Below the pieces are notes generated by a model. It did not search any database. It was not told where the DNA came from and saw only the letters and a program-made list of their open reading frames with translations. Source: an uncultured Candidatus Saccharibacteria bacterium (lineage in GTDB: Bacteria > Patescibacteriota > Dojkabacteria > J137). From it: 64,000 nt of DNA. Within the stretch, counting starts at the first letter, position 1, and every line of letters begins with the position of its first letter. The stretch spans positions 573,009 through 637,008 of the forward strand of contig OZ246402.1 in assembly GCA_965230975.1 (NCBI GenBank), given 5' to 3'. Made by a program: the position numbers and the translations under genes. This document shows, one piece after another, positions 11,677-64,000 of this stretch.

Positions 11677-11739
11677 TTGTTTTTATATAATTATCTTCGC
11701 TATTCTAGTATACTGTGCATATTAAGTAAATTTATTTTT

Positions 11740-43359: not shown

Positions 43360-43362
43360 ATT

Positions 43363-46220: not shown

Positions 46221-46814
46221 TTATTTTTCATAAAGATATCTAGATATAATATTTAGTAATTCTTCGTCACTCATGTTTCTACTATCTAGATTTAGTTCTT
46301 CGTTCCATTTGTCCCAGAATGGTTTGTCTTTTGGTGTGTGATCAGGTTGCAATCCTAATTCTTTACAGATCTCATCTAAGTTTTTAGTGTCGTCAAATAA
46401 TTCTACTTCAAATGGGTATTTTTCGCTTTTGCCTGTTTGGTGAGACAACTTAATTTCTGCATATCCTAGATCAAACAAGTAGTTTGTGTACTGCATTATT
46501 TGTTGGGATGGTATTTGTGCATTTACAGATATTATTATTGCTTTAAAAAAGTTTAGGATTGCTTTAGCATCGTTTACTAGTGGTATTTCTAGTTCTGTTC
46601 TTTCTCTTTTATTCCAGTCTCCTGTTTTTTGTACAAACTCAGCTTGTCCGTTTGTTATTTTTATTCTGCTATCTACTTCTGGCCTTGCCCAGTCGCTTGT
46701 TTCTATTGCTAGTCGAGTCTTTTTAATTGGCTGACCAAATTTGGCTGTAAACTCTTCAAGTTTTTGGTTAAATTGTTGTTGGGTTAATAGTCCCCAGTAT
46801 TCTTTTTCTAACAT
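46221..46814 (-). CDS. hypothetical protein
   Basis: ORF only. Confidence 0.45.
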   Translation of the reverse strand: MLEKEYWGLLTQQQFNQKLEEFTAKFGQPIKKTRLAIETSDWARPEVDSRIKITNGQAEFVQKTGDWNKRERTELEIPLVNDAKAILNFFKAIIISVNAQIPSQQIMQYTNYLFDLGYAEIKLSHQTGKSEKYPFEVELFDDTKNLDEICKELGLQPDHTPKDKPFWDKWNEELNLDSRNMSDEELLNIISRYLYEK

Positions 46815-46829
46815 ATGGTTTTACTAAAT

Positions 46830-47771
46830 TTAGTAAAAGGAAAAGACTTCATCGGAAACTTCTCCAGTATCCCAAAGTATTTTGTTCTCTGGTTTGGATT
46901 TTATTACTACTCTTACAACCACATTCGTTGTGAGGGTAGGTAAAAATTGTACATCCTTTCTTTCATATCTTACATCTCCATATTCATTTGAAATATTGAA
47001 ATCGGTAAGCCAAATTTGGTATGGAACCCAGGAATTTCCACTTGAAATATAATTATTCTTAAATTCACCTTCATCGTTATTCTTAATATAAGCAAGAATT
47101 TCTAAATCATTAACACTGTCTAGTCCTGGACACATAAATGAACCTCGCATCTTTTGAGATGGATTATAAATTCCACCTAAAATCTCGTTTACAGGAGAGA
47201 GTATAGTTAGAGTTTTAAAATAGTAAAATGTGTCAGAAACTTTAATTTCAGATAATAAATCACCCTGAATGACCTGGACATAACATTTGTAATATCCATT
47301 TTGTAAGTTGTAAAGTCTTAGTTCAGTTTGATATCCTGTAAATTCTAATGAGTTTGGTATAGGGTCAGATGCTTTGAGAATTGCAGATTTGAATCCTCCT
47401 AGCATATTTTCTCCTTCCCAGTTGCATTCCAGAACGCCAATATCAGATTTATTTACTAATCTTATTGCAGTAACCCGAGGTAAAGTTGAAGAATTATTAT
47501 TATTTATATTTTCGTTATTATTAGTGTTAGTGATAACTTTTTGCTCATTATTATCAGTTTTTGAGACTTCTTTAGTCTCATTGGATTCGTTAACTGTCAT
47601 ATCCTCATTGTTAATTATGACATAAGATGTAGGGTATTCTTGAATCGAACTACTAAAGACATTTTTATCATGTTCGAATTTCAAAAATATACAAATTAAA
47701 AGTGTGACTATAATCGCTACACCTAGCGCAAAAATAATTAGCGATTTTTTATTAATATTTAAAAGAGACAT
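46830..47771 (-). CDS. membrane-anchored hypothetical protein with N-rich linker
   Basis: N-terminal TM, Asn-rich low-complexity spacer, about 200-aa C-terminal domain. Confidence 0.5.
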   Translation of the reverse strand: MSLLNINKKSLIIFALGVAIIVTLLICIFLKFEHDKNVFSSSIQEYPTSYVIINNEDMTVNESNETKEVSKTDNNEQKVITNTNNNENINNNNSSTLPRVTAIRLVNKSDIGVLECNWEGENMLGGFKSAILKASDPIPNSLEFTGYQTELRLYNLQNGYYKCYVQVIQGDLLSEIKVSDTFYYFKTLTILSPVNEILGGIYNPSQKMRGSFMCPGLDSVNDLEILAYIKNNDEGEFKNNYISSGNSWVPYQIWLTDFNISNEYGDVRYERKDVQFLPTLTTNVVVRVVIKSKPENKILWDTGEVSDEVFSFY

Positions 47772-47885
47772 AATAGTAACTTAATTTAGTAATCTTAGCA
47801 TTTAATTATTTATATTTCATTGTGTCGCATTACAAATATAGAAATTTTCTCTTATTAAATATTTGCTTAGATTTATAATCATGTT

Positions 47886-48323
47886 ATGAATTACTCACAG
47901 ATTTTATTTGAAAAAGCAACTTCATTTGCAGAAAATTTAAAAGTCAATACCGATATATCGTCTATATTTCTAGGTGGTTCAGGTAGTAGAGGAGTAGAGG
48001 AGTAGAGGATATTAATTCGGATGTCGAAATATATATTGTGCTCAATATTAAACGTAAACTGAATTCATACGTTTACTATTAAAATGCTTGTAGATATGGA
48101 ATATGAAGTGCCTGGAGAGTGGACCATATCTTTATTAATTGAAGGAATTAAATATGACATGTATTTTTGGGAGCTTTCATATATAGATGAGTTAATTACT
48201 AATCATTCTAATTCAATATTGAGTTCTTTAGATGAATGTTCTATTTCTTCGATTTTGGATGCAAAAGTAATTACTGGCAAACTATATATCAAGTCATTGC
48301 AATTAAATTATCAAACTACCTAA
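47886..48323 (+). pseudogene. Disrupted nucleotidyltransferase-fold gene: +8 frameshift from a third copy of an 8-bp tandem repeat, plus a second 1-nt frameshift
   Basis: 5' ORF encodes ...IFLGGSGSRGVEE then stops. With two rather than three copies of agtagagg (47985-48008), the frame continues into DINSDVEIYIVLN (hG[GS]...D[IV][DE]h nucleotidyltransferase motif). The downstream ORF 48084-48323 is in a further shifted frame. Confidence 0.5.
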
Positions 48324-48533
48324 AACAACTACAGTCCAAACTTATTCATGAATAAATTTCCATTGAAATTTGAGGAGTTTAAATTGTTTTTGAAGTTTTA
48401 ATTACGTAGTTTTTCTCTTTTTGTGAAATCTTCATTTTAATTCACTAATAATTTCCAATATATTTGTGCCACGGTACATTGTTGAGTTTCTGTTTAGAAG
48501 TTACTATGCGGTATTAAATTTTATAAGAATAGT

Positions 48534-48746
48534 ATGACCTTTGGTGAAAAAATTCAAATTTTGAGATTAAAAAAAGGCATTAGCCAAAAGCAGTTTTCTA
48601 AAGAATCTGGTATTCCCTTTTATACAATTGTCTCTTTAGAATATGATAGAACTAAAATCCCCCTAATAACTACTGTAATAAAACTAGCCCACTATTTTAA
48701 ACTAAGCATTATAGAAATTATTGAGGGTGTAGATTTTAAAAAATAA
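48534..48746 (+). CDS. XRE-family helix-turn-helix transcriptional regulator
   Basis: IQILRLKKGISQKQFSKESGIPFYTIVSLE is a classic HTH_3 motif. Confidence 0.75.
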   Translation: MTFGEKIQILRLKKGISQKQFSKESGIPFYTIVSLEYDRTKIPLITTVIKLAHYFKLSIIEIIEGVDFKK

Positions 48747-48789
48747 GGTTTTTATAATTGTAAAAAACTAGTACGCCTTTTAAATATCT

Positions 48790-49989
48790 TTATTCTATAG
48801 TGCTTTTATCAAATAAAGATATGGGTATTTCCTCTTCTTCGGCAGTTAGCAAAAACTCTTTAAGCATCTCTTTATGTTCGTCATTTTGCATATAAGACCA
48901 GTCTGTTGCCTCATTATAGTTAGATTTATCTTCACTAAAAAGATTAATCTCTACTCTATATTCATTAAGTTGGTAGTTTTTTATATATTTTGCAACCTCT
49001 ATTATGCCTTCTAATATAGCTTTCCTATCGTTTAATGATATAGTAATACGTTTTTCTTCATCGTTAGTATATTTTTGATAGAAAGAACCGGTGTTAATCC
49101 ACACATCTCTCGTTCGTAGTTCTTGAGCTGCACCTATGGCAATATCAGGTTGAATAAATTCAGATGCTCTAAAAATTTCTTGTGCATTAAACTGGGCATT
49201 TGGAGCCCATGGGAATCCTTGAATACCAAAACTATCTACCAATGTCTTATCTATATTAACTAAGTATGGAGCTAAGCTAATGTAGTCTCCATTGTCCCAT
49301 AACACATCATCAGGTTCATAAGTTGTAGCATTTAATAAAATACTACCTTTTGCGTTTGGAAAATACTTTTTTAAAGATCTTAAATATGTATTTACTACAA
49401 TCCCAAAATCAGAAGGCTCTGTGTCTTTATTATCCCAATTTGGAGTATTCGATTCTGGAAAGGGCACCCATGTCCCCATCATTTCATCTGTAACACCTCT
49501 TTGCTTTAGTTCAAAAAAGAATGTATCTAGTGGCTTATTGTAAACTCCATTTAAAAAATCTCTGTACCTCAATAAGTTGCCACCAGTATATGGCTCTACT
49601 ATTACAATAGGCTGTATATTATTTTGCTTAAATAAATCAAGCTTAGTAGCGATAGTAAAGGCAAGTTCCTGGGCTGAGGTTTGATCAAAAGGAATATGTG
49701 TAAAAAACATTAGTTTATTTGTAACATAGGAGTCACAAATATCTTGATATTCTGCTAATTTTATTAAGTTTTCGTCTTGTTGTGTATTTAAATTTAATGA
49801 GTCTTTTGTTGAGCATTTAGTAAACATTGGCAAATTATCACTTTTATCTTCTTTAACAATATTGGTTAAGGTTTCGTTTAAAATCTCTTTTATGGTTTGG
49901 TTACTAAATATATTGAAAGTGAAAATCACAAAACAAAAAACTGACATAATAATAATCCCGTTTGCAATAAGTAATTCTCTGTTTTTCAT
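48790..49989 (-). CDS. membrane-anchored hypothetical protein, possibly a TIM-barrel glycoside hydrolase-like partner of the GT2 synthase
   Basis: N-terminal TM. No motif recognised with confidence. Starts 17 nt after the GT2 gene stop. Confidence 0.4.
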   Translation of the reverse strand: MKNRELLIANGIIIMSVFCFVIFTFNIFSNQTIKEILNETLTNIVKEDKSDNLPMFTKCSTKDSLNLNTQQDENLIKLAEYQDICDSYVTNKLMFFTHIPFDQTSAQELAFTIATKLDLFKQNNIQPIVIVEPYTGGNLLRYRDFLNGVYNKPLDTFFFELKQRGVTDEMMGTWVPFPESNTPNWDNKDTEPSDFGIVVNTYLRSLKKYFPNAKGSILLNATTYEPDDVLWDNGDYISLAPYLVNIDKTLVDSFGIQGFPWAPNAQFNAQEIFRASEFIQPDIAIGAAQELRTRDVWINTGSFYQKYTNDEEKRITISLNDRKAILEGIIEVAKYIKNYQLNEYRVEINLFSEDKSNYNEATDWSYMQNDEHKEMLKEFLLTAEEEEIPISLFDKSTIE

Positions 49990-50006: not shown

Positions 50007-51266
50007 TTAAATTCCTTCGCGTTTCCATACTTGCCAAACAACCTCTTCTTTTTTTAAGTACATTCGTAGACTCTTAAATAATGCCATGTATTCAATCCAG
50101 TCAAGAAAGTAAAATAGAGGCCATGTAAATGGAAACATTAATATAATTCCAATCCTAGGCTTTTCGTTGCTAAACAAGGCTGTAATTACGTAAGATAAAA
50201 ATATAAATAGAATACCAATGCTTATAGATACAAATTCAAGTGTAATTAAGCTGTAAATTAACAATACAGCTATAGCTATTGGCTCAAAAATAAGTTGTAT
50301 TTCTGTAAATAATGAAAATGGTAGTACAAAATAAGATAAAAAGAAATTGTGTGAATCTTCTGTAGAAAAAAACATTGATTTATACTTTTTAAATGTATCT
50401 AATCTTCCTTTTTTCCATCTAATTCTTTGAGAAATTAATCCTTTTACAGTAGAAGCACCTTCTGTATAGCAAACTACATTTTCTGCATAAGTACATTTGT
50501 ATCCAAAGTATCTAAGTCTCATAGACATTTCTATATCTTCGGTTTTGTTTACAGTATCAAAAAGCCCAATTTTATCAAAAACTTCTCTTCTAAAAGATGC
50601 GCAAGCACCTCCAAAAATATATTCAGCACCAAGTACTGCGTGTGTTCTCTTGTTGTAAAATCCAAAGTAGTATTCTAAGTATTGTGCTAGCCCCAACAAG
50701 GTTTTTGTATTGGTTACTTGTACATTCCCAACAACTCCAAATATTGTTTCATCTCTGTAATATTTCACTAAATTACTTATAGAACCATTTTTAAGTTTTG
50801 AATCCGCATCTATAGTTAAAACTATCTCTCCTTTAGCAAGTTGAATTCCAGTATTTAAAGCAACTCCCTTTCCACCATTTGTCTGATATTTGTAGGTGAT
50901 TTTTTCACCTAGCTCTTTATCTTTATTTTTTAAATCAGAGATGTATTTTTTCATTATTTTATCTGAGTTGTCTGTAGATCCATCGTTAACAACTATTATT
51001 TGTACATTCGAATATCCGTTATATAAGGCTGATTCAACTGTTTTTAAAATTCCAACTTCTTCATTCCAAGCAGGTATTACTACTGACACTAAATAAGGTT
51101 CTGGGTTTTCTAATGAACCATTTTTTTTATATTGCTTTATTAATCTTAATTTTTCTTTAATTGTGTACCACGGAGCTATTACTAAAAAGAGATAATTTTT
51201 AAGTAATACTAGGCTTACAAATAATGCTATTAATGATGTGAATATTATATAGATTGTATTTTCCAT
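50007..51266 (-). CDS. family 2 glycosyltransferase, processive polysaccharide synthase type (PgaC/IcaA-like)
   Basis: N-terminal TMs. Cytoplasmic GT-A domain with VVIPAWNEE, VVNDGSTD, DAD and QRIRW motifs. C-terminal TM cluster. Confidence 0.8.
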   Translation of the reverse strand: MENTIYIIFTSLIALFVSLVLLKNYLFLVIAPWYTIKEKLRLIKQYKKNGSLENPEPYLVSVVIPAWNEEVGILKTVESALYNGYSNVQIIVVNDGSTDNSDKIMKKYISDLKNKDKELGEKITYKYQTNGGKGVALNTGIQLAKGEIVLTIDADSKLKNGSISNLVKYYRDETIFGVVGNVQVTNTKTLLGLAQYLEYYFGFYNKRTHAVLGAEYIFGGACASFRREVFDKIGLFDTVNKTEDIEMSMRLRYFGYKCTYAENVVCYTEGASTVKGLISQRIRWKKGRLDTFKKYKSMFFSTEDSHNFFLSYFVLPFSLFTEIQLIFEPIAIAVLLIYSLITLEFVSISIGILFIFLSYVITALFSNEKPRIGIILMFPFTWPLFYFLDWIEYMALFKSLRMYLKKEEVVWQVWKREGI

Positions 51267-53871: not shown

Positions 53872-54972
53872 ATGTCAATTAATACTGATTTAGAACAAAG
53901 TAATTCGGTTAGACTAATAAGTAGCCAAATTAAAGAGCGTTCTTCAAATGTGGTTTTATACTCTGATTCAGATTTTAAATCTGCCCACAGTATTTATTGC
54001 CCTATAGGATTTGAGTCTGTTGCTGACTATTATGTTGCTCCTTACATGCGTAAGTTTGCAGACATTATCTTTGGTGTCGCACAAAATCCTTCTTATGGAT
54101 ATTCCCCTGAAAAGAATGAAATACATATTTACTTTTCAGAAATGGATTTATATAAAGGAATTTTAGCTTTGTTAGCTAATAATACTCGAGCATTAGAGGG
54201 TATTCTTAAAGCTCTAGAAATAGATCATACTCAAATTGAAGATACTATTTTAAGATACGTAAGGCTTCTCAATAGAATTACCTTTGATAATAAATATAAT
54301 TTGGATAATCAAGATAAACTTTTACTTGAAAGGATGGGTGCTTTTTTTAGTGGCCATCCGGATTTTATAGAATTGATTTTTGGTAATTCTGTAAATTACT
54401 CTGTTTATCATGAGGTAAATCACGCCAGGTTAGATGATTTGTATTTAAATGTAGCATATATTCCAAGATATAATTCTAGTTCTGCAAGAAATGCGATGCA
54501 AGTCAGTTATATAGGGTTTATGGATAAGTTTAATGAAATTGAGACTTATTTAATTGAAAATAATAACTTAACAGATTCCTATATTACTATTCTTCAACTA
54601 ACTAATCATGGTATGTTTAAGATTTTGTTAAGGGATATCTATTCTTATCCAGATAAGATAGATGCATTGTATACAAGTTATCTGGGTTCTTTACAGGAGC
54701 TGTTTAATTTTATGCAATTCGCAATTCTAAAAAAAGATTTAGCTAAAGATGAATTACAAAAGCAATTGATTAGATATTTTTGTGCATATATTGCAGATGT
54801 AATGTTTTTATTCCCTGATAATGCTATTGTTAGAAGATACTTGGATTTGGCAAATTCTTTAGATGCAAATCAAATAAATTTGTTTTTGAAAGAGTTAGTC
54901 GCCCTAATGAATAAGGAGTCGTTTGATAAGTTTGTAGATACTCATTTTAGATGGCTACAAAAAGAGGATTAA
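53872..54972 (+). CDS. hypothetical protein (366 aa)
   Basis: ORF only. Confidence 0.5.
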   Translation: MSINTDLEQSNSVRLISSQIKERSSNVVLYSDSDFKSAHSIYCPIGFESVADYYVAPYMRKFADIIFGVAQNPSYGYSPEKNEIHIYFSEMDLYKGILALLANNTRALEGILKALEIDHTQIEDTILRYVRLLNRITFDNKYNLDNQDKLLLERMGAFFSGHPDFIELIFGNSVNYSVYHEVNHARLDDLYLNVAYIPRYNSSSARNAMQVSYIGFMDKFNEIETYLIENNNLTDSYITILQLTNHGMFKILLRDIYSYPDKIDALYTSYLGSLQELFNFMQFAILKKDLAKDELQKQLIRYFCAYIADVMFLFPDNAIVRRYLDLANSLDANQINLFLKELVALMNKESFDKFVDTHFRWLQKED

Positions 54973-55457
54973 TTTTCGCTATACTGATCAAGTTCCTCCT
55001 GTGTTATAGAAAACATTTGTCTTATCATATCTAGTTGAGATCTTAATACCATAAAATTTATACTGTTAGATTCCATTTCTTCAGCACTTAATATTAAAGG
55101 CATTTCTGGGTTATGTTCTTCGTAATCTGTTCTAATTTCTCCGATATGTGGTATCTTACCTATTTGTTCTATGGTTTTTAAAATTCCACCTGCTAGCCAT
55201 TGTGAGCAGTTTAACGGGCTATTTACATATTCTTCGAGGCTTAAACCTGACCTGATATTTGGATATATTCCAAGTTCTTTAAGATGGTTTAAGACTAGGT
55301 ATATTTTGTTTAGAAGTATTTCTTTATCCATTGGTCTTAAAGGTAGTGTTGGGTCCTCACTATAACTAGTAATGTATGCCATTACTTCTACACATAAATC
55401 TCTTAGCTCTTTACTTTTGTGGTCGCTATTAAAGAAATATTTATCAGGTTTGAACAT
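54969..55457 (-). CDS. hypothetical protein
   Basis: ORF only; convergent 4-nt overlap with the previous gene. Confidence 0.45.
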   Translation of the reverse strand: MFKPDKYFFNSDHKSKELRDLCVEVMAYITSYSEDPTLPLRPMDKEILLNKIYLVLNHLKELGIYPNIRSGLSLEEYVNSPLNCSQWLAGGILKTIEQIGKIPHIGEIRTDYEEHNPEMPLILSAEEMESNSINFMVLRSQLDMIRQMFSITQEELDQYSEN

Positions 55458-55537
55458 GAATTTATTCTCAAAAAATATTGTGTGGATTATATACTATTTT
55501 TCTGAAGTTTAAAGAATTGTACATTTAATTGGCAGAT

Positions 55538-55583
55538 CTCGTAACATTCGACTACATTTCATTTGTCTCATTAACTACGGAGA
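55538..55583. repeat. 48-bp direct repeat, copy A (copy B at 57210-57258)
   Basis: ctcgtaacattcgactacatttcatttgtctcattaactacggag is nearly identical to 57210-57258, with one internal mismatch (t/a). Confidence 0.7.
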
Positions 55584-55709
55584 GCTTCGGATGTTTTTCC
55601 AATTTGACCCGTGGCAAGAAATATTATTGATTGACCAATAGATATTAATTCTACACTCTATAGATTTATTAATAGTGTGTTATGATCTATCATATTTCAT
55701 TCTCAAAGT

Positions 55710-56783
55710 ATGAAACAAATGGTTCATTTAAATGAAAACATGCGTTCTAGTAGAGGCATTGTTAGAATGTTTAATCAAATACCCACACAGGAATTATTAG
55801 AAGCTCTCTCGAAATATCCTGATTTAATACCACCTGGTGCAGAGATTGTAGCAACCAATTTTGGACAGATAAATTTGGTCTACATTGTTAGAGTTCCAGG
55901 TATAAAGATCCCTAAACGAGTAATTATTATACCCAGGCCAGATAAAGAGACAAATCAGGTTGAGCAAGACACAATGGAAGATTTTTACGGTTTAAAAGAA
56001 GTGTATGAATCTTTTGTGGCATTTAAATCTGAAGGTAAGATTCAAGCTACAGCTACCATACCTATACCTAGACCTTTAGGACTTATTTGCTCTCAATTTT
56101 TAACTGTAATGGTTAATGAATTCGCGGGCAGTCAAGAAGGTTATTTTGGTTCTGAAGAAACCTTTCCTGCTTTTGTTTCGGGAGGAACAGGTGGTAATAC
56201 ATATTTAGGTTTATCCTGGATAGTGAACCCAAGTTTCACTAATGAGACAGACTTATTAAGACGTCAGACTACAAGTATTGCTAATAGGTTGACTCATCAT
56301 CTGGGTAACAATGGAATTGATAGTGAATATAGTAGTATCTCTCATGCGATAGCTATCTCTCATATTGAAGCTCTAGTCAAAGTTTGGTTACTTACAGGAA
56401 AATATCCTCTAAAATACTGTCCTTCTGCTGGAGATGGTGTTATGTTAAATAAAGATTATGATTCAAAAAGTCATCCTGACATAGCTAATGTGGATATTAA
56501 TTTAATTACATTAAGAGGCGGACTATCTCGGGTAGTAGATTCGCAAGCTTTTATTCAATTCTTAAGAGGACTAAAGGATAAGCCAATCGTTTATTGCGAT
56601 TTTAAAGGTTCGGATTTAGTCATAGTTCAACCTAATAATGCTAAATTATATGAATACTGGGGAGGAGAGGAAGTTAGTGTTTTTAGTGATAAACAAATTA
56701 GAGAAGGTATTGAAAGGGCATTTATGAATTACTTTGGAAACGATTCTTTGCATTATCTGCAAAGAATTTTGGCTGAAGTATAA
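55710..56783 (+). CDS. hypothetical protein (357 aa), possibly kinase-like fold
   Basis: Gly-rich segment and HPDIANVD segment weakly reminiscent of the APH/protein-kinase-like fold. Not a confident call. Confidence 0.45.
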   Translation: MKQMVHLNENMRSSRGIVRMFNQIPTQELLEALSKYPDLIPPGAEIVATNFGQINLVYIVRVPGIKIPKRVIIIPRPDKETNQVEQDTMEDFYGLKEVYESFVAFKSEGKIQATATIPIPRPLGLICSQFLTVMVNEFAGSQEGYFGSEETFPAFVSGGTGGNTYLGLSWIVNPSFTNETDLLRRQTTSIANRLTHHLGNNGIDSEYSSISHAIAISHIEALVKVWLLTGKYPLKYCPSAGDGVMLNKDYDSKSHPDIANVDINLITLRGGLSRVVDSQAFIQFLRGLKDKPIVYCDFKGSDLVIVQPNNAKLYEYWGGEEVSVFSDKQIREGIERAFMNYFGNDSLHYLQRILAEV

Positions 56784-56808: not shown

Positions 56809-57108
56809 TTAAGCTTCTCTGTCGATTTCTTTATTTCCTAGTTCAGATTCTTGAATGTTTTTAATATCAACAGTTCTTCTAGCTAAGTACAGAGAACCAA
56901 CGCTATGTTGAAGCATTTTAATTAAACCATCAGGAGTATGGCTGCTATCGATTTCACCCTGCCCGTTAATTCCTACATAAATATTCCCATCAGTTTGAAC
57001 AAAATATACTGTATTCTTCTCTATAGCTAGTTTTTTAGCATTCGCAAGTCTTTCTTCATATGTTTCAGGAACAGTTTGATCTATTAAATCCTCAATGTGG
57101 TAGTTCAT
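56809..57108 (-). CDS. hypothetical small protein
   Basis: ORF only. Confidence 0.4.
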   Translation of the reverse strand: MNYHIEDLIDQTVPETYEERLANAKKLAIEKNTVYFVQTDGNIYVGINGQGEIDSSHTPDGLIKMLQHSVGSLYLARRTVDIKNIQESELGNKEIDREA

Positions 57109-57209
57109 TTATATAGGTTTAAAATTTAATAACTGATTATAACGTTGACAAATTATGTGGTCAATATTAGTTTCGAATTTAAGAACGGAGGAGACCAAGT
57201 AGGTCGCTC

Positions 57210-57500: not shown

Positions 57501-58211
57501 TTATGATTCTGGAGTATCGCCAACCAGTAATCTTAATTGGGAGATAATTTGGTCCAATTCCCCATCTTTATTAGAAATATAATTAGAAAATAAATGTCTT
57601 TTTGCAAGAATAGCTCGTGCATTTCTAATTCGACCCTGAAATTCAACCTCACTTTCTCCTCGATCTCTTAGTGAAAGTCTACTTGAAATTACCTCTAAAG
57701 CTTTTTCTACTCCATTCTCACCTTCAATTTCTTCAGTAGTAATAGGACTTATAAAGCAATCATAAATTGGAATATTAAGTCTCTTGAAGATATCTTTCAA
57801 AAGTAGAGCTCCATCAACGTCAATATCTAAGATTAAACGGTTTCCATTGTTCAAAGCCACTAGTATATCATCTAAGCTTGTTCCATAGTATCCTTGCCCA
57901 TATTTACTCCATTCTAATAGCTTATTTTTATTTACTTGGTCTAGGAAGTCACTTTCATCTAAGGAATGATAATTAGATTCATTAGGATTCATACTTTTAG
58001 TCGTCGTTCTATTAACTTTAGTATATCCTCGATTGCTTGCCATAAGTTTTTCAATTATAGAACTTTTACCAACTCCATTAGGGCCAGTAATCAAAATAAC
58101 TTGAAAGTTATGTTCACCTAGGCGTTCAGATAAAGTTAGAAAATTAATCTTATCTACAGTTTGGTTCTGTCCCCATTTATAATTTCTATCTAAGTCCATA
58201 ATTATCATCAA
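57501..58211 (-). CDS. guanylate kinase-like P-loop NMP kinase (divergent)
   Basis: Walker A ITGPNGVGKSS; TTTKSMNPNESNYHSLDESDF...LLEWSKYGQGYYGTS aligns with the guanylate kinase TTRxPRxGE..Y.FvsxxxF...fLEwaevhgnyYGT. Confidence 0.55.
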   Translation of the reverse strand: MMIIMDLDRNYKWGQNQTVDKINFLTLSERLGEHNFQVILITGPNGVGKSSIIEKLMASNRGYTKVNRTTTKSMNPNESNYHSLDESDFLDQVNKNKLLEWSKYGQGYYGTSLDDILVALNNGNRLILDIDVDGALLLKDIFKRLNIPIYDCFISPITTEEIEGENGVEKALEVISSRLSLRDRGESEVEFQGRIRNARAILAKRHLFSNYISNKDGELDQIISQLRLLVGDTPES

Positions 58212-59115
58212 TTAAATGTAATCTGCGTTCAATTTCTTCTATATCAATAGGAAACTCTATCATCCCTTCGTGCTCAACACTTATACTCGAGAGAGCATTT
58301 GCAAATTCAATAGATTCTTTTAATGCTGCAGATTGATTTAATTTAAATATAAAACCTGCTCTCCAAACATCTCCTGCTCCAGTTGGATCTATAGAATTTG
58401 TACGATAGGTTGGAAAGATTTGTTCTAATTCAGCAGTAACTAATTTGACTCCGCCTGCTCCCAAGGTTTCAATTACTACTTTTTTATTGTCAGTTAATTC
58501 TTTGGGAGACATCTTCAATCTTGACTGAATTCTTTCCCATTCGGCATGATTAGCAATTACAATACTAGAATTAGTTATACCACTTAATAATTCCTCGTCA
58601 GATAAATTATGTAATATCATTCCTGGATCATACATATAAGTACATTTTGATTCGATTAATATTCTTTGAACTGTGAGAAATAAACTTTTATCAATAGGTG
58701 AGAGTATTGTAAAGTCAGTTGATAAGAAAGGTGGAAGTAATTCCGGATCAATTAGTCTAGATAGTCTATCCTCAAATCTTAACCAGTCTTGGTGACCATC
58801 AGAGTATGTATTTACTTCTCCTTCTGAAGTAGAAGATCTTTCAAATACAAATAAATTTGCAACATCAACACCTACTTCAGCTAAAGTATTTCTCAGAACT
58901 TCTCCATTAGATCCTATCGCGCCAATTAAACTTATTTTATTTTCTGATAGGCGAGCTAAAGTATGAGCTATTGTGAATCCAGTGCCTCCTAGAAAAATTT
59001 CTGAAGATATATTTCTGTCTAAATAGTTATTTTTTACAAATCCAACTGAACCAATAATATTTATATGTGCCATACTATTTTTTATCACCAAATATCCTTC
59101 TGAATTCTTTATCAA
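58186..59115 (-). CDS. PfkB-family carbohydrate/nucleoside kinase
   Basis: C-terminal DPTGAGDVWRAGFIF (DTxGAGD motif) and N-terminal GG motif. The Met 14 codons downstream (start at 59073) would remove the overlap. Confidence 0.7.
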   Translation of the reverse strand: MIKNSEGYLVIKNSMAHINIIGSVGFVKNNYLDRNISSEIFLGGTGFTIAHTLARLSENKISLIGAIGSNGEVLRNTLAEVGVDVANLFVFERSSTSEGEVNTYSDGHQDWLRFEDRLSRLIDPELLPPFLSTDFTILSPIDKSLFLTVQRILIESKCTYMYDPGMILHNLSDEELLSGITNSSIVIANHAEWERIQSRLKMSPKELTDNKKVVIETLGAGGVKLVTAELEQIFPTYRTNSIDPTGAGDVWRAGFIFKLNQSAALKESIEFANALSSISVEHEGMIEFPIDIEEIERRLHLIDDNYGLR

Positions 59116-59662
59116 CTAACTTTCTTATTAATTCGGCTTTGCTAACTTCAAGATTTGTAGAGAGTTGTTCCATTTGTTTAAGTGTATTTGTTTTTAAAAC
59201 TACATTAAATCTTCTCTTTGGGGGATCAAGTTCGTCGATGTATTCAATAATCACATCTTCTAATTTATCTAAGTCCTTATATCTTCTAACGGTAACGAAG
59301 TCTTCTCCATACGAAAGAAGTGTTTCTGGAAATTCATTATATTTATCCTCATGAACAAGACAAAGTACAGGAATTTTATTTTCTAATGCTAATATTGTCT
59401 GAAAGAATACAGTTCTTGATTTATCAGTGAAGTATGCAACAGCAAAATCAATAGATCTAATTTGTTTTTGCGTCCCATCTACAATCGAATCTGTTTTATT
59501 CCTAACAGTTTTCTTGATAGCTGGTGGATATTCGTCAACAAATGCTGGATTATACATAGATACTCCTTGTGCACGAATTATATTTGCTATTTTTCTATAT
59601 ATTTCTATATTCAGATCTATATTTTTTATTGAAGCAAATAATCCAAATCTTTTAGCTTTCAT
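59075..59662 (-). CDS. hypothetical protein, possibly nucleoside 2-deoxyribosyltransferase-like Rossmann fold with an RHH-like C-terminal tail
   Basis: Weak pattern similarity only. Confidence 0.35.
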   Translation of the reverse strand: MKAKRFGLFASIKNIDLNIEIYRKIANIIRAQGVSMYNPAFVDEYPPAIKKTVRNKTDSIVDGTQKQIRSIDFAVAYFTDKSRTVFFQTILALENKIPVLCLVHEDKYNEFPETLLSYGEDFVTVRRYKDLDKLEDVIIEYIDELDPPKRRFNVVLKTNTLKQMEQLSTNLEVSKAELIRKLVDKEFRRIFGDKK

Positions 59663-60453
59663 AGTTTATAAAAATATTTAAGAACAATATTAAATAATCT
59701 TTTAGGTAAGTGACATTTACAAAATGCCAGAACTTTATCCCTATAGCTAACAAACTGAGATCTATTAGATTCAAAAATTATTGACTCTACGAGCTTAGCT
59801 ACATCTTCAGCTTTATTTCTGTCACTAAAAAAGTTTCTAAATCGTATTTGCCATTCCTCATATAGACTTTTGTATATACTATTTTCTATATTAATTGTTT
59901 CAATTATATTTTTGCCAAAACTACTTTTCACAGCACCTAAATAAATATTAGCTACTTTTATTTCAGATTCCTCGTTTAGAATGTCCAGAGTTTTACTAAA
60001 TGCCAGTTTAGATATTTCGTAATAGCCAAATGTAGGTATGTCTAATAATGAGCCTAAGGCTGCTAAATTTATTACTATTCCTTGGTTACTACGCAATTTG
60101 GGAATCAGAGATTTTAATAATTCTGTTGGACCGAAATAATTTATTTCAAATTGCTTACGAATATTCTCTATACTTAAGTCTTCGATAGTCCCTCTAAAAC
60201 CAACACCCGCATTGTTTATAAATATGTCTACTTGTTCATCTTTAAGTAAATTTATAACTTTCGGTATGCTATTAGAGTTACCTAAATCAACTTCAATAAA
60301 TTTATAATTGGACGGTTGTGAATCTATATTATTTCTACCTAATCCGATTATCTCCACATCATTTCTACTAGACAGCAAGGAAACAATAGAGTATCCAATG
60401 CCTGAACTGACTCCTGTGATAATGATTTTTTTCCTTTTATTTGATTGATTCAT
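59659..60453 (-). CDS. short-chain dehydrogenase/reductase (SDR)
   Basis: TGVSSGIGYSIV cofactor motif; YEISK catalytic YxxxK. Confidence 0.8.
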   Translation of the reverse strand: MNQSNKRKKIIITGVSSGIGYSIVSLLSSRNDVEIIGLGRNNIDSQPSNYKFIEVDLGNSNSIPKVINLLKDEQVDIFINNAGVGFRGTIEDLSIENIRKQFEINYFGPTELLKSLIPKLRSNQGIVINLAALGSLLDIPTFGYYEISKLAFSKTLDILNEESEIKVANIYLGAVKSSFGKNIIETINIENSIYKSLYEEWQIRFRNFFSDRNKAEDVAKLVESIIFESNRSQFVSYRDKVLAFCKCHLPKRLFNIVLKYFYKL

Positions 60454-61381
60454 CTTTAGCTAAACTTAGTAATAATCCAGTTGAAATATTGTTGTTACTT
60501 GGAAAAATTCTATTTATTTTTAAATATTCGCAGATTGCAAATATATTCATAAGCGCCTTATCTGCTGCCCACATATAATAAGGTTCGTCTGGGTAAAGAG
60601 GCATTCTATCTTCATAACTTAAACTAATTAGTTTCTCGTAAAGAGGTTTTAATTCTTCAACAGTTGTTTCGAACTTATGAGCACCAGTATTGTCAGAAGG
60701 TATTAGATTAAGATTCATTGCTTTAAAGAAATCTATAATGTTTGTACTTCCATAAACTAACAGTTCAGGTTGATTCTTTCCCTCAGTTAGAGATTTTAAC
60801 TGTTCTTTGACATAATCATAAGCTGCATTTACTTCCTCTTCACTAGGATGATGTGTTTTAGAGAATCTTTCTTGTAGATAATAAGTCCCTGTTTTAAATA
60901 AGAATGTTTGGAATATTTCTTCATCTTTTCCAATAACGACCTGAACACTTCCTCCTCCAATATCTGAAACTGCAATCACTTTACCGGGAAAATCTTTAGA
61001 AACTGAATGAAAGTAGACTTTTGCTTCATCGTCATGAGAAAGTGTTATTAATGAAATCTCAGTCTCTTGTTTTATCTTTTTTAAAACCTCATCTGCATTT
61101 TTTGCCTTTCGAATAGCTTCTGTGGTAACTCCAACATATTTGTTAACTCCAAATTCATTCATTTTTTCTTTGAAAAGTTTAAGAGCCTCAATTGTTTTAT
61201 CAATAGATTTCTCAATGATTGTATTATCAGTTTTATCAAGATCTCTTCCAAGAACAGTTAATTGTTTATCTTTATAAACTAATTCTGAATTGTAATTCGA
61301 ATCAAATTCTCTAATTTCGAACTTTGATTTTAATGTTCCAACATCTATCACAGCAACTTTTTTCTTTTTATTTTCTGACAT
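60437..61381 (-). CDS. Ppx/GppA-family (ASKHA-fold) phosphatase
   Basis: VAVIDVGTLKSKFEI phosphate-1 motif; VGVTTEAIRKAKNADEVLKKIKQETEISLITLSHDDEAKVYFHSV matches the Ppx/GppA core. Confidence 0.65.
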   Translation of the reverse strand: MSENKKKKVAVIDVGTLKSKFEIREFDSNYNSELVYKDKQLTVLGRDLDKTDNTIIEKSIDKTIEALKLFKEKMNEFGVNKYVGVTTEAIRKAKNADEVLKKIKQETEISLITLSHDDEAKVYFHSVSKDFPGKVIAVSDIGGGSVQVVIGKDEEIFQTFLFKTGTYYLQERFSKTHHPSEEEVNAAYDYVKEQLKSLTEGKNQPELLVYGSTNIIDFFKAMNLNLIPSDNTGAHKFETTVEELKPLYEKLISLSYEDRMPLYPDEPYYMWAADKALMNIFAICEYLKINRIFPSNNNISTGLLLSLAKDESIK

Positions 61382-62666
61382 AAAAATAATTTTTTAATAA
61401 GTAATAATTTTGAGATAGATTAGATCGTAAAAAGCTACCACTAACAATATTAACGGTTTTTACATCTTCAATATCTTTTATTGTTTCTAAATCTACACTT
61501 CTATCTATTGTAATCGAAACAGGTCCCTTATATGCGTAGTTAATCATTTTGTGAGCTCGATTAAAATTAGATACTCGTTCAGTGTGATTCTTTGATTGAA
61601 GACAGACTAATGTTTCGTCTTTAATAAATTTTTCCCAAGGAAATAACTCATCAATTAAATCTTTAACGTCAAGGCTATAGTTTATTTTTTCAATAGTTAA
61701 TTTCTCGGTTTCAAATTTATCATAATTATCTCGGTTAATATGAAGAAAGATCTTACTACTTATATCTGTTTCTATATCTAAAAATTTGATCATTTGTTCA
61801 TACGATTCTTCTGATTTTGCAAATATGTGATAGTGAACATTAATGTGCGATGATTTCTCCCTTATATTTTTTATCAATTCTAATGTTAGATTAAGATTAG
61901 TGGATTGTTCGACAAATCCATCGGTGATATCTATATGTAAAAAATCAATTTTAGCTAATATTGCCTCATCGAGTGTATCAATATTTTGCTGAACAATATC
62001 TTGTATGGCATATCCAACTTGGTGATTTGAGATAATACTTTCTTTGTATAAAAGTTTAGCAATTGTGGACATTTTATTAGCATCTGTATTTTCAAATTCT
62101 GTTTTAGTAGCGGCTTTTATATTAGATTGTATATCAAAGCCATAAATATCAAGATCGATATACTTATAAAGATTTTCAGCTGCAATTCCACCTGCGAGAA
62201 AGATATTTTTTATATTGAGACTTTTAACTAGAGTATTTACTTTATCAAAACCTATTTCTTTTCCTGTACCTCCAACAAAGGATTTATCTAAAATATAGTT
62301 ATCTGCGTTTTTATTAGGTTTATCACTTTCAGATATAAGTACTTGAAATATTTCAACACTATCTCCATAGACACCTTTTAGATTGTCAATAATCTCATTT
62401 GAGTTAGAGTAATGTAGTTGAACAGCATCAAACTCCATGGAATTAATTAATTCTATAAGTGTCTCTAATTTTGTTTCCTTAGTAACCAAAACAGATTTGG
62501 TATCGGGATAAAACATTTTTAATTCCTTTATACAAATCTTGATCAGATCTAATCTTTTAAAATCATTTTCTGAAATAAGGTGAAACCCAAGATAATCTAT
62601 ACCTAGTTTTCCTGCAGTTCTTGTTTCGAAAATATTTTTTATATCGCAAAATTTAATTTTCTTCAT
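61368..62666 (-). CDS. fusion of two ribulose-phosphate-binding (beta/alpha)8 barrels: TrpF-like isomerase plus RPE-like domain
   Basis: N-terminus KIKFCDIKNIFETRTAGKLGIDYLGFHLI resembles TrpF; C-terminal IDFLHIDITDGFVEQSTNLNL...HINVHYHIF resembles ribulose-phosphate 3-epimerase. Confidence 0.45.
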   Translation of the reverse strand: MKKIKFCDIKNIFETRTAGKLGIDYLGFHLISENDFKRLDLIKICIKELKMFYPDTKSVLVTKETKLETLIELINSMEFDAVQLHYSNSNEIIDNLKGVYGDSVEIFQVLISESDKPNKNADNYILDKSFVGGTGKEIGFDKVNTLVKSLNIKNIFLAGGIAAENLYKYIDLDIYGFDIQSNIKAATKTEFENTDANKMSTIAKLLYKESIISNHQVGYAIQDIVQQNIDTLDEAILAKIDFLHIDITDGFVEQSTNLNLTLELIKNIREKSSHINVHYHIFAKSEESYEQMIKFLDIETDISSKIFLHINRDNYDKFETEKLTIEKINYSLDVKDLIDELFPWEKFIKDETLVCLQSKNHTERVSNFNRAHKMINYAYKGPVSITIDRSVDLETIKDIEDVKTVNIVSGSFLRSNLSQNYYLLKNYFYVRK

Positions 62667-63352
62667 AGTAGATTATTTATAACATTCAACATGTCTGATT
62701 TGTAATCAGCTAATATAAACTTTGACCCAGCATTTAGTGCAAATTCCCTATCAATTAGATCATTATCACCAATATAATAATCCATCTTTACTCCAGAAAC
62801 ACTGTTCAGCTTATAAGCACCAAAACTATCAGGCTTATCTTTTAATATTTGACCTTCATATAAATCTTCTTCACCAATAATTACATCAAAAAAATCAATT
62901 AGATTGGCTTTAATTAATAGTGAAGTCACAATAGTCTTTCTAGTTGAACTAACAATTCCAATCTTTATATTTTTACTTTTAAGTGCAATTAATGCTGGAG
63001 TCAGATTCAGAGCAATTTGCTCTAATAAAGAATAGGTTTCTTCTTCAAGAATTGCTTTTATAGTTGCACTTTCTTTTAAACCCATAATTCTTTTTACTAT
63101 TTCATCTTCATTTTTTTCATTAAAATAAATACTGATCTGTTCTTTCATTCGAAAGTTGTTATCTAGAAATCCTTTCTTAATTCTTCGATAACTGTCAAAT
63201 CTTTCTCGGAGATTTGGTTCATAAGGAAGTAAATCTTCCAATAGAAAATTTATCCTCAAATCTTTTAAAGCAGATTCCCATCCTCTCTTATGAAAGCTGG
63301 TAGATTTTGCTATTGTTCCATCGAAATCAAATACAATAAACATATTAATCAA
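62663..63352 (-). CDS. HAD-family phosphatase (beta-PGM-like subfamily)
   Basis: IVFDFDGTIA motif I; helical cap between motifs I and II. Confidence 0.7.
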   Translation of the reverse strand: MINMFIVFDFDGTIAKSTSFHKRGWESALKDLRINFLLEDLLPYEPNLRERFDSYRRIKKGFLDNNFRMKEQISIYFNEKNEDEIVKRIMGLKESATIKAILEEETYSLLEQIALNLTPALIALKSKNIKIGIVSSTRKTIVTSLLIKANLIDFFDVIIGEEDLYEGQILKDKPDSFGAYKLNSVSGVKMDYYIGDNDLIDREFALNAGSKFILADYKSDMLNVINNLL

Positions 63353-64000
63353 TATAATTTTTTAATAAACTAATTATTTTTTGTTTCTCTTTATCAAAAA
63401 CTCCTTGACGATTAGTATAACTAAATTTTTTATAAGTACCTGTGAAATTACTTGTGTAAGTAACTATTGCCTTTTCTAATACTTCGGGATTTACTCCTCC
63501 ATGATATGGTCTGATGAGATGATGATACCTATTAGTATTTTTAAATGATACAACAGCTAGAAAAGCTTCTTTAATATTTTTTGGATACAAATCTAAGAAG
63601 GTTTGAATTGTCTTTCCAGTTGTGGTCGAATCATCTAGGATTAAGACCTTATCAAAGCCTTGAAAATAGTTCTCATTATAAAAAGGTGGTAAAGAGTCAT
63701 CTAGATCTTGAACATAATTTGAACTTCCAGTTGAGTAGTTTGAAAGTGAGCAAATAATCTGACTTTCTAATGATTTATTTATGGTCATTCTAAAAGCATT
63801 AACAGCAAACGGAAGTTCCATTCCACCATATGCGAAACTCACAAGAAGAGTGTTAGATGGAATATATTGATCCGATACAACTTTAGCAAAATTTATAATT
63901 TTGTAAGGATGGCTACATTCTCTTATCTTCCTAATAATGTTGTTTTCCCAATGCTCACTAAATAGAGATCGAGAAGAGATCTCACTACAAAATCTCTTGT
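63345..64000 (-). CDS. type I phosphoribosyltransferase domain protein, 5'-truncated by the window edge
   Basis: PRPP-binding loop KVLILDDSTTTGKT. The reading frame stays open upstream of the track GTG at 63842 all the way to position 64000. Confidence 0.6.
   Translation of the reverse strand, partial: KRFCSEISSRSLFSEHWENNIIRKIRECSHPYKIINFAKVVSDQYIPSNTLLVSFAYGGMELPFAVNAFRMTINKSLESQIICSLSNYSTGSSNYVQDLDDSLPPFYNENYFQGFDKVLILDDSTTTGKTIQTFLDLYPKNIKEAFLAVVSFKNTNRYHHLIRPYHGGVNPEVLEKAIVTYTSNFTGTYKKFSYTNRQGVFDKEKQKIISLLKNYID

Follow-up and report, generated by a model that had tools for sequence, protein, structure and literature searches.

A Patescibacteria-restricted gene cluster that combines a PRTase-like protein, a TrpF-Rpe double barrel, and a candidate ligand-sensing regulator

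Gene content and distribution of the cluster

To describe the locus, we refer throughout to a 64-kb window (64,000 nucleotides of contig OZ246402.1, the whole stretch of DNA analyzed), in which positions 57501 to 64000 hold eight open reading frames (ORFs), all on the minus strand. In order of transcription they encode a phosphoribosyltransferase (PRTase)-like protein termed X427, a HAD phosphatase, a double barrel with TrpF-like and Rpe-like halves, a Ppx/GppA-type phosphohydrolase, a short-chain dehydrogenase/reductase (SDR), a 195-amino-acid protein termed Y195, a PfkB kinase, and a divergent guanylate kinase-like (GK-like) protein. The original prediction had described these genes as one tightly coupled operon. 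Indeed, all eight ORFs are present where they were first noted, overlapping or abutting at junctions of -17 to +1 nt (Table 1). The most upstream ORF meets no stop before the end of the window and runs off position 64000. Logan contig L001, which is identical to this DNA and extends beyond the window, supplies the N terminus of X427 (427 amino acids in full, with a start near 64628 in window coordinates) and a candidate promoter/operator upstream of it; gene-call starts taken from this contig were used to compute the junction distances. The gene arrangement is far beyond chance and appears to be translationally coupled. Because the ORFs overlap and one conserved promoter/operator lies upstream, the operon is probably carried on one transcript.

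Pfam and fold evidence uphold all eight domain assignments made in the original prediction. None of the eight proteins reaches its NCBIfam equivalog cutoff, and all miss by a wide margin, in agreement with the earlier view that these genes are not canonical salvage enzymes. The proteins encoded by flanking cluster genes likewise score below their equivalog cutoffs.

Table 1. Features of the cluster, distance from each gene to the next one downstream, and number of nonredundant loci (of 18) in which each gene was found. Positions are those of the window unless contig L001, L003, L005, L013, or L025 is named.
Feature	Position	Strand	Match or remark	Junction (nt)	Loci
X427, PRTase-like, C-terminal 218 codons	63345..64000	-	full gene to ~64628, L001 8039-9322	+1	16
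HAD-IA phosphatase, 226 aa	62663..63343	-	PF13419, 1e-16	-4	14
TrpF-like barrel, N half of 432-aa fusion	62052..62666	-	PRAI, PF00697, 1e-14		17 (fusion)
Rpe-like barrel, C half of 432-aa fusion	61368..62051	-	PF00834, weak	-14	
Ppx/GppA-family phosphohydrolase, short two-domain, 314 aa	60437..61381	-	PF02541, 2e-32	-17	17
Classical SDR oxidoreductase, 264 aa	59659..60453	-	PF00106, 3e-21	-4	13
Y195, MilB/Rcl-like domain and C-terminal RHH-like domain	59075..59662	-	fold; weak RHH profile	+1	14
PfkB-family sugar or sugar-phosphate kinase, 295 aa, accessory	58186..59073	-	PF00294, 3e-25	-14	5
Guanylate-kinase-fold P-loop kinase, divergent, 232 aa, accessory	57501..58199	-	PF00625, 6.5e-16		4
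GT2	within L001 5097-7919		upstream of operon		10
APH-type kinase	within L001 5097-7919		upstream of operon		11
Nucleotidyltransferase (cytidylyltransferase-like)	within L001 5097-7919		upstream of operon		6
183-aa protein	within L001 5097-7919		upstream of operon		5
Palindrome	L001 7934-7952		~715-733 nt past window end; overlaps TGTATAAT -10-like box		
Palindrome	L003 7972-7990				
Palindromes	L005 6147-6165, 7977-7995				
Palindromes	L013 3675-3693, 9239-9257				
Palindromes	L025 7994-8012, 13593-13611				

Exact-protein look-ups together with GTDB and JGI scans gathered 29 loci, 18 of them nonredundant. Per-gene counts in the 18 loci are lower bounds; many contigs end within the cluster. 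The same gene order is found across the 29 loci at protein identities down to about 30%, and orthologs in relatives are clustered rather than scattered. The conserved core is X427-HAD-barrel-Ppx-SDR-Y195, with the PfkB and GK-like kinases forming an accessory tail; in L005, PfkB is reduced to a fragment. Of the eight-gene unit first proposed, the six core genes therefore stand, whereas the two kinase genes (4 to 5 of 18 loci) are accessory and the unit extends beyond the window. Four further genes usually adjoin the core across loci, encoding a family 2 glycosyltransferase (GT2), an aminoglycoside phosphotransferase (APH)-type kinase, a nucleotidyltransferase, and a 183-amino-acid protein. Ppx and the barrel protein form the most persistent pair in variant clusters, and the variant loci L027 and L029 retain X427-like, Ppx, and barrel proteins.

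A more distant arrangement occurs in a metagenome-assembled genome of Candidatus Shapirobacteria (L014 2925-13799), where a variant cluster encodes an AAA_33 kinase, a DUF4037 protein, Ppx/GppA, NUDIX, and NTP_transf_2 proteins, a pyridoxal phosphate-dependent decarboxylase, a 673-amino-acid fusion of a PNP_UDP_1 domain to an Rpe-like barrel, and a separate protein resembling phosphoribosylanthranilate isomerase (PRAI), along with a class I/II aminotransferase and an amidohydrolase. This variant may represent a related pathway with an amine-forming branch. Its amine-forming enzymes, if they do belong to the cluster, would fit an N-linked intermediate.

The cluster is rare and restricted to the Patescibacteria (candidate phyla radiation [CPR]). 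Among 185,579 GTDB species, 7 matched, every one a member of the Patescibacteria, and the bacterium carrying the present window is therefore almost certainly of the CPR as well. An exhaustive profile search of 1.84 billion representatives found about 40 clusters at 50% identity with an E value of ≤1e-30; at 90% identity, 49 clusters held a match, about 40 of them full-length. Several loci have mobile or defense-type neighbors. A faint SMODS match, an S24 peptidase, and DUF1508 lie at L001 1-2406, while L003 1-5453 and 15559-16227 and L004 10776-14154 encode Fic, ResIII, RhuM, and KilA-N proteins, an N6/N4 methyltransferase, and an IS1595 transposase; a GIY-YIG protein is also among these neighbors. 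These neighbors suggest that the cluster is placed in variable genomic regions in several genomes. The operon has a GC content of 29 to 30%, compared with 28 to 36% across the 2-kb bins of the window, so its composition is host-like. The window itself belongs to a cellular genome of low GC content (~30%) and a source contig of 1.19 Mb, with genes for transketolase (11677-13581), RadA, a Mur ligase, Ddl, UmuC, peptidase M3, and ABC transporters; all of these except the transporters were used to rule out a phage or plasmid origin.

Core enzymes and accessory kinases

In an AlphaFold2 (AF2) model of full-length X427 (pLDDT 82, pTM 0.88), a helical bundle at the N terminus precedes a type I PRTase core, so that the C-terminal domain is predicted to have the alpha/beta fold of this enzyme class. 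Pfam model PF00156 scores 12.9 to 14.7 bits, below its cutoff of 26.3, and weakly matches all 13 members of the family (best E value, 7e-6). The loop expected to bind phosphoribosyl pyrophosphate (PRPP), VLILDDSTTTGKT, consists of a hydrophobic run, two acidic residues, and then T/S-G-x-T. Within it, D333, S334, T337, and G338 are invariant among 13 sequences and L331, D332, T336, and T340 are nearly so; a second loop, YGGxELPF, is invariant in 13 homologs. Fold matches include the adenine phosphoallulosyltransferase 7f06. PRTase folds are also found in the noncatalytic regulators PurR and PyrR. Judging from the model, the helical-bundle N-terminal domain on a PRTase would be new as far as we found.

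The N-terminal half of the double barrel scores 54.8 bits against PF00697 (cutoff, 22.7) and 57 to 66 bits against the best NCBIfam TrpF models, whose cutoffs are 212 to 380. Both TrpF catalytic residues, Cys7 (general base) and Asp127 (general acid, aligned to E. coli PRAI Asp379), are invariant, as are the GGTG and LAGG phosphate loops, and all of these are shared with annotated TrpFs. In addition, this domain contains the family-specific invariant basic residues K10, R16, R38, K43, and K63. The C-terminal half scores 18.7 bits against PF00834 in the full protein and 22.1 bits as an isolated domain (cutoff, 21.1), and this model matches 11 of 13 barrel members (best E value, 2.7e-5). In a profile alignment, its DFLHIDIxDG and HxF motifs correspond to the His/Asp/His metal ligands of the Rpe/AlsE structures 1h1y, 2fli, and 3ct7, ITIDRSVD aligns with IEVDGGVD, and VxGSYL aligns with VAGSYL, the C-terminal G-S phosphate loop. 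H244, D246, and H280 are invariant and D388 is nearly so; the Rpe His-Asp-His-Asp set is thus kept. The TrpF-Rpe fusion family appears to be new as far as we found. A separate family of about 470 amino acids among the representative library matches covers only the first ~310 profile positions.

The remaining core enzymes also retain their active-site motifs. HAD motifs DxDGT, S/T, K, and GDxxxD are kept in 15 orthologs. The Ppx/GppA protein scores 113 bits against PF02541 (cutoff, 27), and its closest solved relative is Aquifex PPX/GPPA (1t6c, 1e-25); the DxGxxxxK and DIGGGS loops are kept, and DDE aligns with EQE of 1t6c, retaining the catalytic Glu position. Its scores against the exopolyphosphatase model TIGR03706 (142 bits; cutoff, 307) and the GppA model (53 bits; cutoff, 624) are far lower than required. 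Orthologs of the SDR keep the TGxxxGIG, NNAG, and YxxxK motifs; the best NCBIfam match, KdsR, reaches 116 bits where 400 are required, and the protein is a probable ketoreductase.

Domain fusions among homologs link several of these activities. P0135 (717 amino acids) and P0169 (1,417 amino acids) join HAD, PRAI, and barrel domains, P0191 joins PRAI to PRTase-CE (PF24390), and P0128 and P0131 join a nucleoside phosphorylase (PNP) domain to the Rpe-like barrel, as does the 673-amino-acid L014 protein. The PRTase-CE domain of P0191 has no similarity to X427, so P0191 supports a link between PRTase and TrpF only at the level of enzyme class. Together with the conserved Cys and Asp, the fusions of PRAI with HAD and PRTase-CE and of PNP with the Rpe-like barrel agree with the earlier proposal that a PRTase feeds a TrpF-type Amadori isomerization. 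Because of the fusions and the variant clusters L027, L029, and L014, we conclude that the PRTase or PNP, the TrpF/Rpe barrels, the Ppx-type hydrolase, and the HAD protein probably act on one substrate family, presumably derived from ribose phosphate or nucleotides.

Among the adjoining proteins, the APH-type kinase, the nucleotidyltransferase, and GT2 keep their active-site motifs. The APH/choline kinase-like protein looks active, with HxDxxxxN and DW motifs. The nucleotidyltransferase is RfaE-II/TagD-like, with rfaE_dom_II as its best NCBIfam match (66 bits; cutoff, 181.5). Searches of Pfam, NCBIfam, and PDB returned no match for the 183-amino-acid protein.

The two accessory kinases are similarly divergent from characterized relatives. 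PfkB scores 89.7 bits against PF00294 and conserves DPTGAGD, including the GAGD catalytic motif; its best NCBIfam matches are ribokinase (75 bits; cutoff, 300), nucleoside kinase, and ribose-1-phosphate kinase (NF053626, 66 bits; cutoff, 330), all far below cutoff. The GK-like protein reaches 91 bits against the guanylate kinase model TIGR03263 (cutoff, 160). It had been proposed to have lost the canonical GMP-binding residues, which is correct for three GMP phosphate-binding positions of yeast Gmk (1gky): Arg38 is replaced by Thr, Arg41 by a Lys that is not kept in orthologs, and Glu44 by Asn. The loss is partial, however, as the P-loop, the fold, and the equivalents of Tyr50, Glu69, Tyr78, Ser80, and Asp100 are retained. 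The N-terminal extension of the GK-like protein carries a WGQNQ motif (within KWGQNQ, residues 12 to 17 of the 236-amino-acid ORF) that is invariant in 5 of 5 orthologs and absent from canonical guanylate kinases.

Y195 and a palindromic candidate operator

Y195 is the best-conserved protein of the cluster, with 50 to 80% identity where the barrel shows 34 to 62%. Its N-terminal domain has the flavodoxin-like fold of the nucleoside 2-deoxyribosyltransferases (MilB/Rcl). The last 45 residues resemble a ribbon-helix-helix (RHH) domain, matching PF12651 (RHH_3) with an E value of 0.005 (17.2 bits; cutoff, 21.6), and the Y195 profile matches CopG over positions 148 to 182 (E value, 0.17). In the structural model, this C-terminal domain is predicted to form an extended segment followed by two helices.

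An invariant 19-bp inverted repeat, TTATACA-N5-TGTATAA, emerged when the intergenic sequences preceding X427 in four loci were aligned. It lies 12 to 87 bp upstream of X427 in every locus with Y195 that includes this region, and it is absent from three divergent loci without Y195. Additional copies precede the GT2-kinase genes (L005 and L011) and an inverted SDR-Y195 unit (L013 and L025). Inside the 64-kb window there are 0 copies, compared with a chance expectation of 0.01 per 64 kb. The DNA is AT-rich, and scans of it for sigma-70 promoters and terminators gave no useful signal; shuffled sequences contained more promoter-like sites than it did.

The probable RHH domain and the distribution of the palindrome, tied as it is to Y195, suggest that the palindrome is a candidate operator of Y195, that Y195 probably senses a ligand and regulates its own operon instead of catalyzing a pathway step, that a single promoter/operator stands in front of X427, and that the GT2 and kinase genes are likely coregulated with the operon. 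In such a mechanism, the MilB/Rcl-fold domain would sense a ligand, and the RHH domain would bind TTATACA-N5-TGTATAA ahead of the operon. The deoxyribosyltransferase-like fold suggested by the original prediction is borne out.

Members of the MilB/DNPH1 family use a Tyr/Asp/Glu catalytic triad with Glu as the nucleophile (MilB E103 and DNPH1 E104), and the E104Q variant of DNPH1 binds substrate without cleavage (PMC10603095, PMC4081090). A profile-versus-PDB search with Y195 did not retrieve MilB or Rcl. In a tentative gap-free register against the DNPH1 sequence, the triad would presumably fall on G7, T64, and Q88 of Y195, and in the same register the phosphate-binding Ser would presumably be retained within K81-S82-R83. 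Were this register right, the N-terminal domain would sense a phosphorylated ligand and not act as an enzyme. An invariant Glu, E94, lies six residues past Q88. By analogy with PutA, an alternative is that Y195 is both enzyme and regulator. The literature searched holds no description of a fusion between a MilB-fold domain and an RHH domain, and a MilB-fold/RHH regulator with its operator would be new as far as we found.

It is extremely unlikely that the cluster consists of ordinary, independent salvage enzymes (APRT, Gmk, RbsK, TrpF, Rpe, and Ppx) lying side by side. Each protein does belong to a common superfamily, but all of the equivalog cutoffs are missed, the reading frames overlap, the order is kept across lineages at 30 to 60% identity, none of the 18 loci has trp genes next to the cluster, the fusions tie steps together, and a conserved candidate operator is shared. 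Synteny, equivalog cutoffs, and operator evidence contradict this explanation. We found no paper that accounts for the cluster or its enzyme combination. Because the equivalog cutoffs were missed, the orthologs are clustered, and no description was found in the literature searched, the original prediction of a candidate undescribed pathway is not refuted.

A tentative pathway, its alternatives, and the surrounding genes

We tentatively favor a reading in which the cluster is a Patescibacteria-restricted, autoregulated biosynthetic unit that makes a C1-substituted keto-pentose or pentitol from a phosphoribosyl precursor, and we hold it with somewhat less than even confidence. What the loci show is the gene content, gene order, catalytic residues, fusions, and palindrome; from these we infer which substrates are used, in what order the steps run, and what product results. 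Using PRPP or a similar phosphoribosyl donor, X427 would form a C1-N bond to a nucleophile; the likeliest nucleophile is an amine nitrogen, perhaps one carried by a nucleotide. The Ppx/GppA-type hydrolase would then trim off a terminal phosphoanhydride, in the same way that HisE acts after HisG. An Amadori-type shift from aldose to ketose by the TrpF-like barrel and C3 epimerization of the resulting ketose phosphate by the Rpe-like barrel would be consecutive steps, because the two barrels are fused. The SDR would reduce the C2 ketone, and the HAD protein would remove the 5-phosphate. Finally, the APH-type kinase, the RfaE/TagD-like nucleotidyltransferase, and GT2 encoded beyond the window would carry out rephosphorylation, nucleotide activation, and glycosylation or transfer. 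PfkB and the GK-like kinase might serve as optional feeder or nucleotide-handling modules.

A biosynthetic direction is tentatively favored over a catabolic one because GT2, the kinase, and the nucleotidyltransferase appear to share the regulatory region. The nucleoside analog suggested by the original prediction is one conceivable product; GT2, the APH-type kinase, and the cytidylyltransferase-like enzyme point at least as much to an activated sugar or polyol or to a cofactor-like compound. Several considerations weigh against the proposed biosynthetic unit. The role of Ppx is assigned by analogy. Dephosphorylation followed by rephosphorylation is a plausible but hypothetical sequence, and GT2 enzymes normally need a nucleoside diphosphate (NDP)-sugar donor, which the model does not clearly supply. 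The noncatalytic assignment of Y195 holds if the tentative DNPH1 register is right. Further, K10, R16, R38, K43, and K63 of the TrpF-like domain could accommodate a negatively charged group at C1, for instance, a phosphate.

Because they could fit a C1 phosphate, these basic residues favor a different scheme, a catabolic, noncarboxylating route like the pentose bisphosphate pathway that recycles ribose from scavenged nucleotides or nucleosides. X427 running in reverse, or PfkB acting on ribose-1-phosphate, would provide PRPP or ribose-1,5-bisphosphate, with Ppx trimming PRPP. The TrpF-like barrel would convert ribose-1,5-bisphosphate to ribulose-1,5-bisphosphate (RuBP), an O-phosphate analog of the Amadori shift, and the Rpe-like barrel would yield xylulose-1,5-bisphosphate. 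The HAD protein, as a CbbY- or RuBP phosphatase-like enzyme, would remove one phosphate, the SDR would reduce a downstream carbonyl, and Y195 would sense a nucleoside monophosphate (NMP). We consider this route, the main alternative, unlikely. Its precedent is haloarchaeal (PMC9700705): a nucleoside phosphorylase and a PfkB kinase specific for ribose-1-phosphate are combined there with an isomerase, a reductase, and a HAD-type RuBP phosphatase. CPR bacteria use nucleoside-derived RuBP pathways (PMC5113843). The cluster shares with these archaeal and CPR RuBisCO pathways a PfkB protein, a proposed conversion of aldose-1-phosphate to ketose-1-phosphate, a HAD protein, a reductase, and hosts that scavenge nucleotides. 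PNP is fused to an Rpe-like barrel in P0128, P0131, and L014, and the Y195 fold is that of an NMP-binding enzyme. However, none of the 18 loci encodes an e2b2/MtnA-type isomerase, an aldolase, or RuBisCO, and the cluster lacks the AMP phosphorylase of the known pathways; its isomerase is instead TrpF-like, fused to an epimerase, and linked to GT2 and a nucleotidyltransferase. Most loci lack PfkB, whose NCBIfam score is far under the cutoff (66 versus 330). A catabolic route would be unlikely to share its operator and neighborhood with GT2, an APH-type kinase, and a nucleotidyltransferase, as happens in 10 or more of the 18 loci, and, with a transketolase encoded in the window, conventional entry to the pentose phosphate pathway seems available.

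The same GT2 and nucleotidyltransferase genes raise the possibility of an NDP-sugar pathway with the logic of ADP-heptose or lincosamide-octose synthesis, leading to an unusual surface glycan. Here the order would be barrel isomerase/epimerase, APH-type or PfkB kinase, HAD, RfaE-II-like nucleotidyltransferase, SDR epimerase or reductase, and GT2, with X427 and Ppx in precursor supply or regulation. We regard this as doubtful. The set of PfkB, HAD, SDR, and GT2 parallels HldE, GmhB, HldD, and heptosyltransferase, and rfaE domain II is the top match of the nucleotidyltransferase. APH-family kinases include the anomeric sugar kinases MtnK, NahK, and AmgK. Envelope functions (Ddl, a Mur ligase, and a processive GT2) are well represented in the surrounding window. 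Compared with the ADP-heptose system (GmhA, HldE, GmhB, and HldD), however, the loci have no SIS/GmhA-type isomerase, the SDR is classical and not of the extended NDP-sugar type, the scores are subequivalog, with rfaE_dom_I at 34 bits against a cutoff of 345, and X427 and Ppx have no counterpart; neither is explained by this reading, although both rank in the top three for persistence across the loci. The nucleotidyltransferase and PfkB occur in 6 and 5 of the 18 loci, respectively, and the Cys/Asp pair of the TrpF-like barrel suggests C1-N (or C1-O-P) chemistry and not a plain isomerization of aldose to ketose.

Returning to the preferred reading of a C1-substituted keto-pentose or pentitol, its closest parallels lie in amino acid, cofactor, and nucleoside biosynthesis, among them histidine, tryptophan, coformycin, and riboflavin-flavin adenine dinucleotide (FAD) synthesis. 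In the histidine pathway, a PRTase, a pyrophosphohydrolase, and an Amadori isomerase act in order (HisG, HisE/I, and HisA), and coformycin/pentostatin biosynthesis adds an SDR (CofB/PenB) and a phosphatase to this order. By analogy, the cluster would share with these pathways and that of tryptophan a PRPP-dependent N-glycoside-forming enzyme, a phosphoanhydride hydrolase, a Cys/Asp Amadori isomerase, an SDR, and a dephosphorylation. It differs in that its PRTase combines a type I fold with a novel helical bundle and is neither HisG nor TrpD, its hydrolase is of the Ppx/GppA type rather than HisE, and an Rpe-like barrel is fused to the isomerase; cyclohydrolase, trp, his, and SAICAR synthetase-like genes are absent from the cluster, and the hosts are CPR bacteria with reduced genomes.

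Flavin-to-FAD logic proceeds through HAD dephosphorylation, a kinase, and a CTP_transf-family adenylyltransferase. The analogy with riboflavin-flavin mononucleotide-FAD synthesis would extend to a ribosylamine-type intermediate converted to a polyol side chain, followed by HAD action, rephosphorylation, and nucleotidylation. Reduction in the cluster would instead occur via an Amadori ketose and the SDR, not a RibD-type enzyme; the kinase is APH-type, not RibK, C3 epimerization has no flavin counterpart, and lumazine and riboflavin synthases are absent. Angustmycin/psicofuranine biosynthesis, which uses an allulose-6-phosphate 3-epimerase, a pyrophosphokinase, the adenine phosphoallulosyltransferase 7f06, and a HAD phosphatase, resembles the cluster in its Rpe-family epimerase, APRT-like PRTase, and HAD enzyme, and it yields an unusual ketose nucleoside.

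A more specific histidine- or coformycin-like version seems quite unlikely. In it, the PRTase would act on an amine or a (guanine) nucleotide, leading to a new dinucleotide-type cofactor or modified nucleotide in a few CPR lineages. GppA-like polyphosphate trimming and formation of a 3-epimerized 1-amino-1-deoxy-pentulose would be followed by SDR and HAD steps to an N-pentityl compound, which would then be phosphorylated, nucleotidylated, and glycosylated. The regulator would belong to a new class in which a catalytically dead MilB/DNPH1 fold senses for an RHH repressor.

The coformycin parallel also bears on whether the cluster is a conflict or defense island module whose product, derived from a nucleotide, acts as a toxin or signal; a coformycin-like nucleoside analog or a modified nucleotide aimed at phage or host would be examples. 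This is very unlikely, in our view. It would draw on the mobile or defense neighbors at L001, L003, and L004, on the fusion of PRAI in P0191 to PRTase-CE, a conflict-system PRTase family, and on the parallel of PRTase, Amadori isomerase, SDR, and phosphatase with coformycin biosynthesis. PADLOC models, however, give only P-loop noise for the GK-like protein and no match for the other nine proteins, the P0191 domain is unlike X427, and the GC composition is host-like. The presence of a putative dedicated repressor of metabolite type, and of partner genes of envelope type, likewise argues against it.

Every component of the cluster comes from a known superfamily and its chemistry has precedents, so the cluster is not categorically new. 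Use of a Ppx/GppA enzyme in a small-molecule pathway based on ribose phosphate would be new as far as we found, and under the proposed chemistry a TrpF-type Amadori isomerase, fused to an Rpe-type epimerase, would function apart from tryptophan synthesis. CPR/Patescibacteria lack most biosynthesis, and their genomes are tiny. That such reduced genomes retain a tightly regulated cluster of 10 to 12 genes across lineages implies an important specialized product, which might be a cofactor, a bioactive nucleoside, or a decoration of the envelope. This product could belong to a new class of metabolites and serve as a marker for host-symbiont interaction among these uncultured bacteria.

Downstream of the operon, TTGACC-17-TATAAT (11/12), on the minus strand at 57136-57164, is the strongest sigma-70-like match in the region. 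It stands just upstream of a 99-amino-acid ORF without a family match (56809-57108, minus strand), some 390 nt past the GK-like gene. This site appears to mark a separate transcription unit beyond the operon. Next to the cluster, ORFs of 366, 162, 357, 399, 313, and 197 amino acids at 53872-56783 and 46221-49989 have no Pfam match. A run of unannotated minus-strand genes includes a 419-amino-acid, processive-type GT2 (50007-51266, minus strand) with chitin or cellulose synthase-like Pfam matches, another envelope polysaccharide function near the cluster. On the plus strand, positions 39208-45633 encode a 1,383-amino-acid secreted-type protein with DUF2341, fn3, and purple acid phosphatase N-terminal domains, followed directly by a 756-amino-acid ABC ATPase fused to a MacB/FtsX permease.

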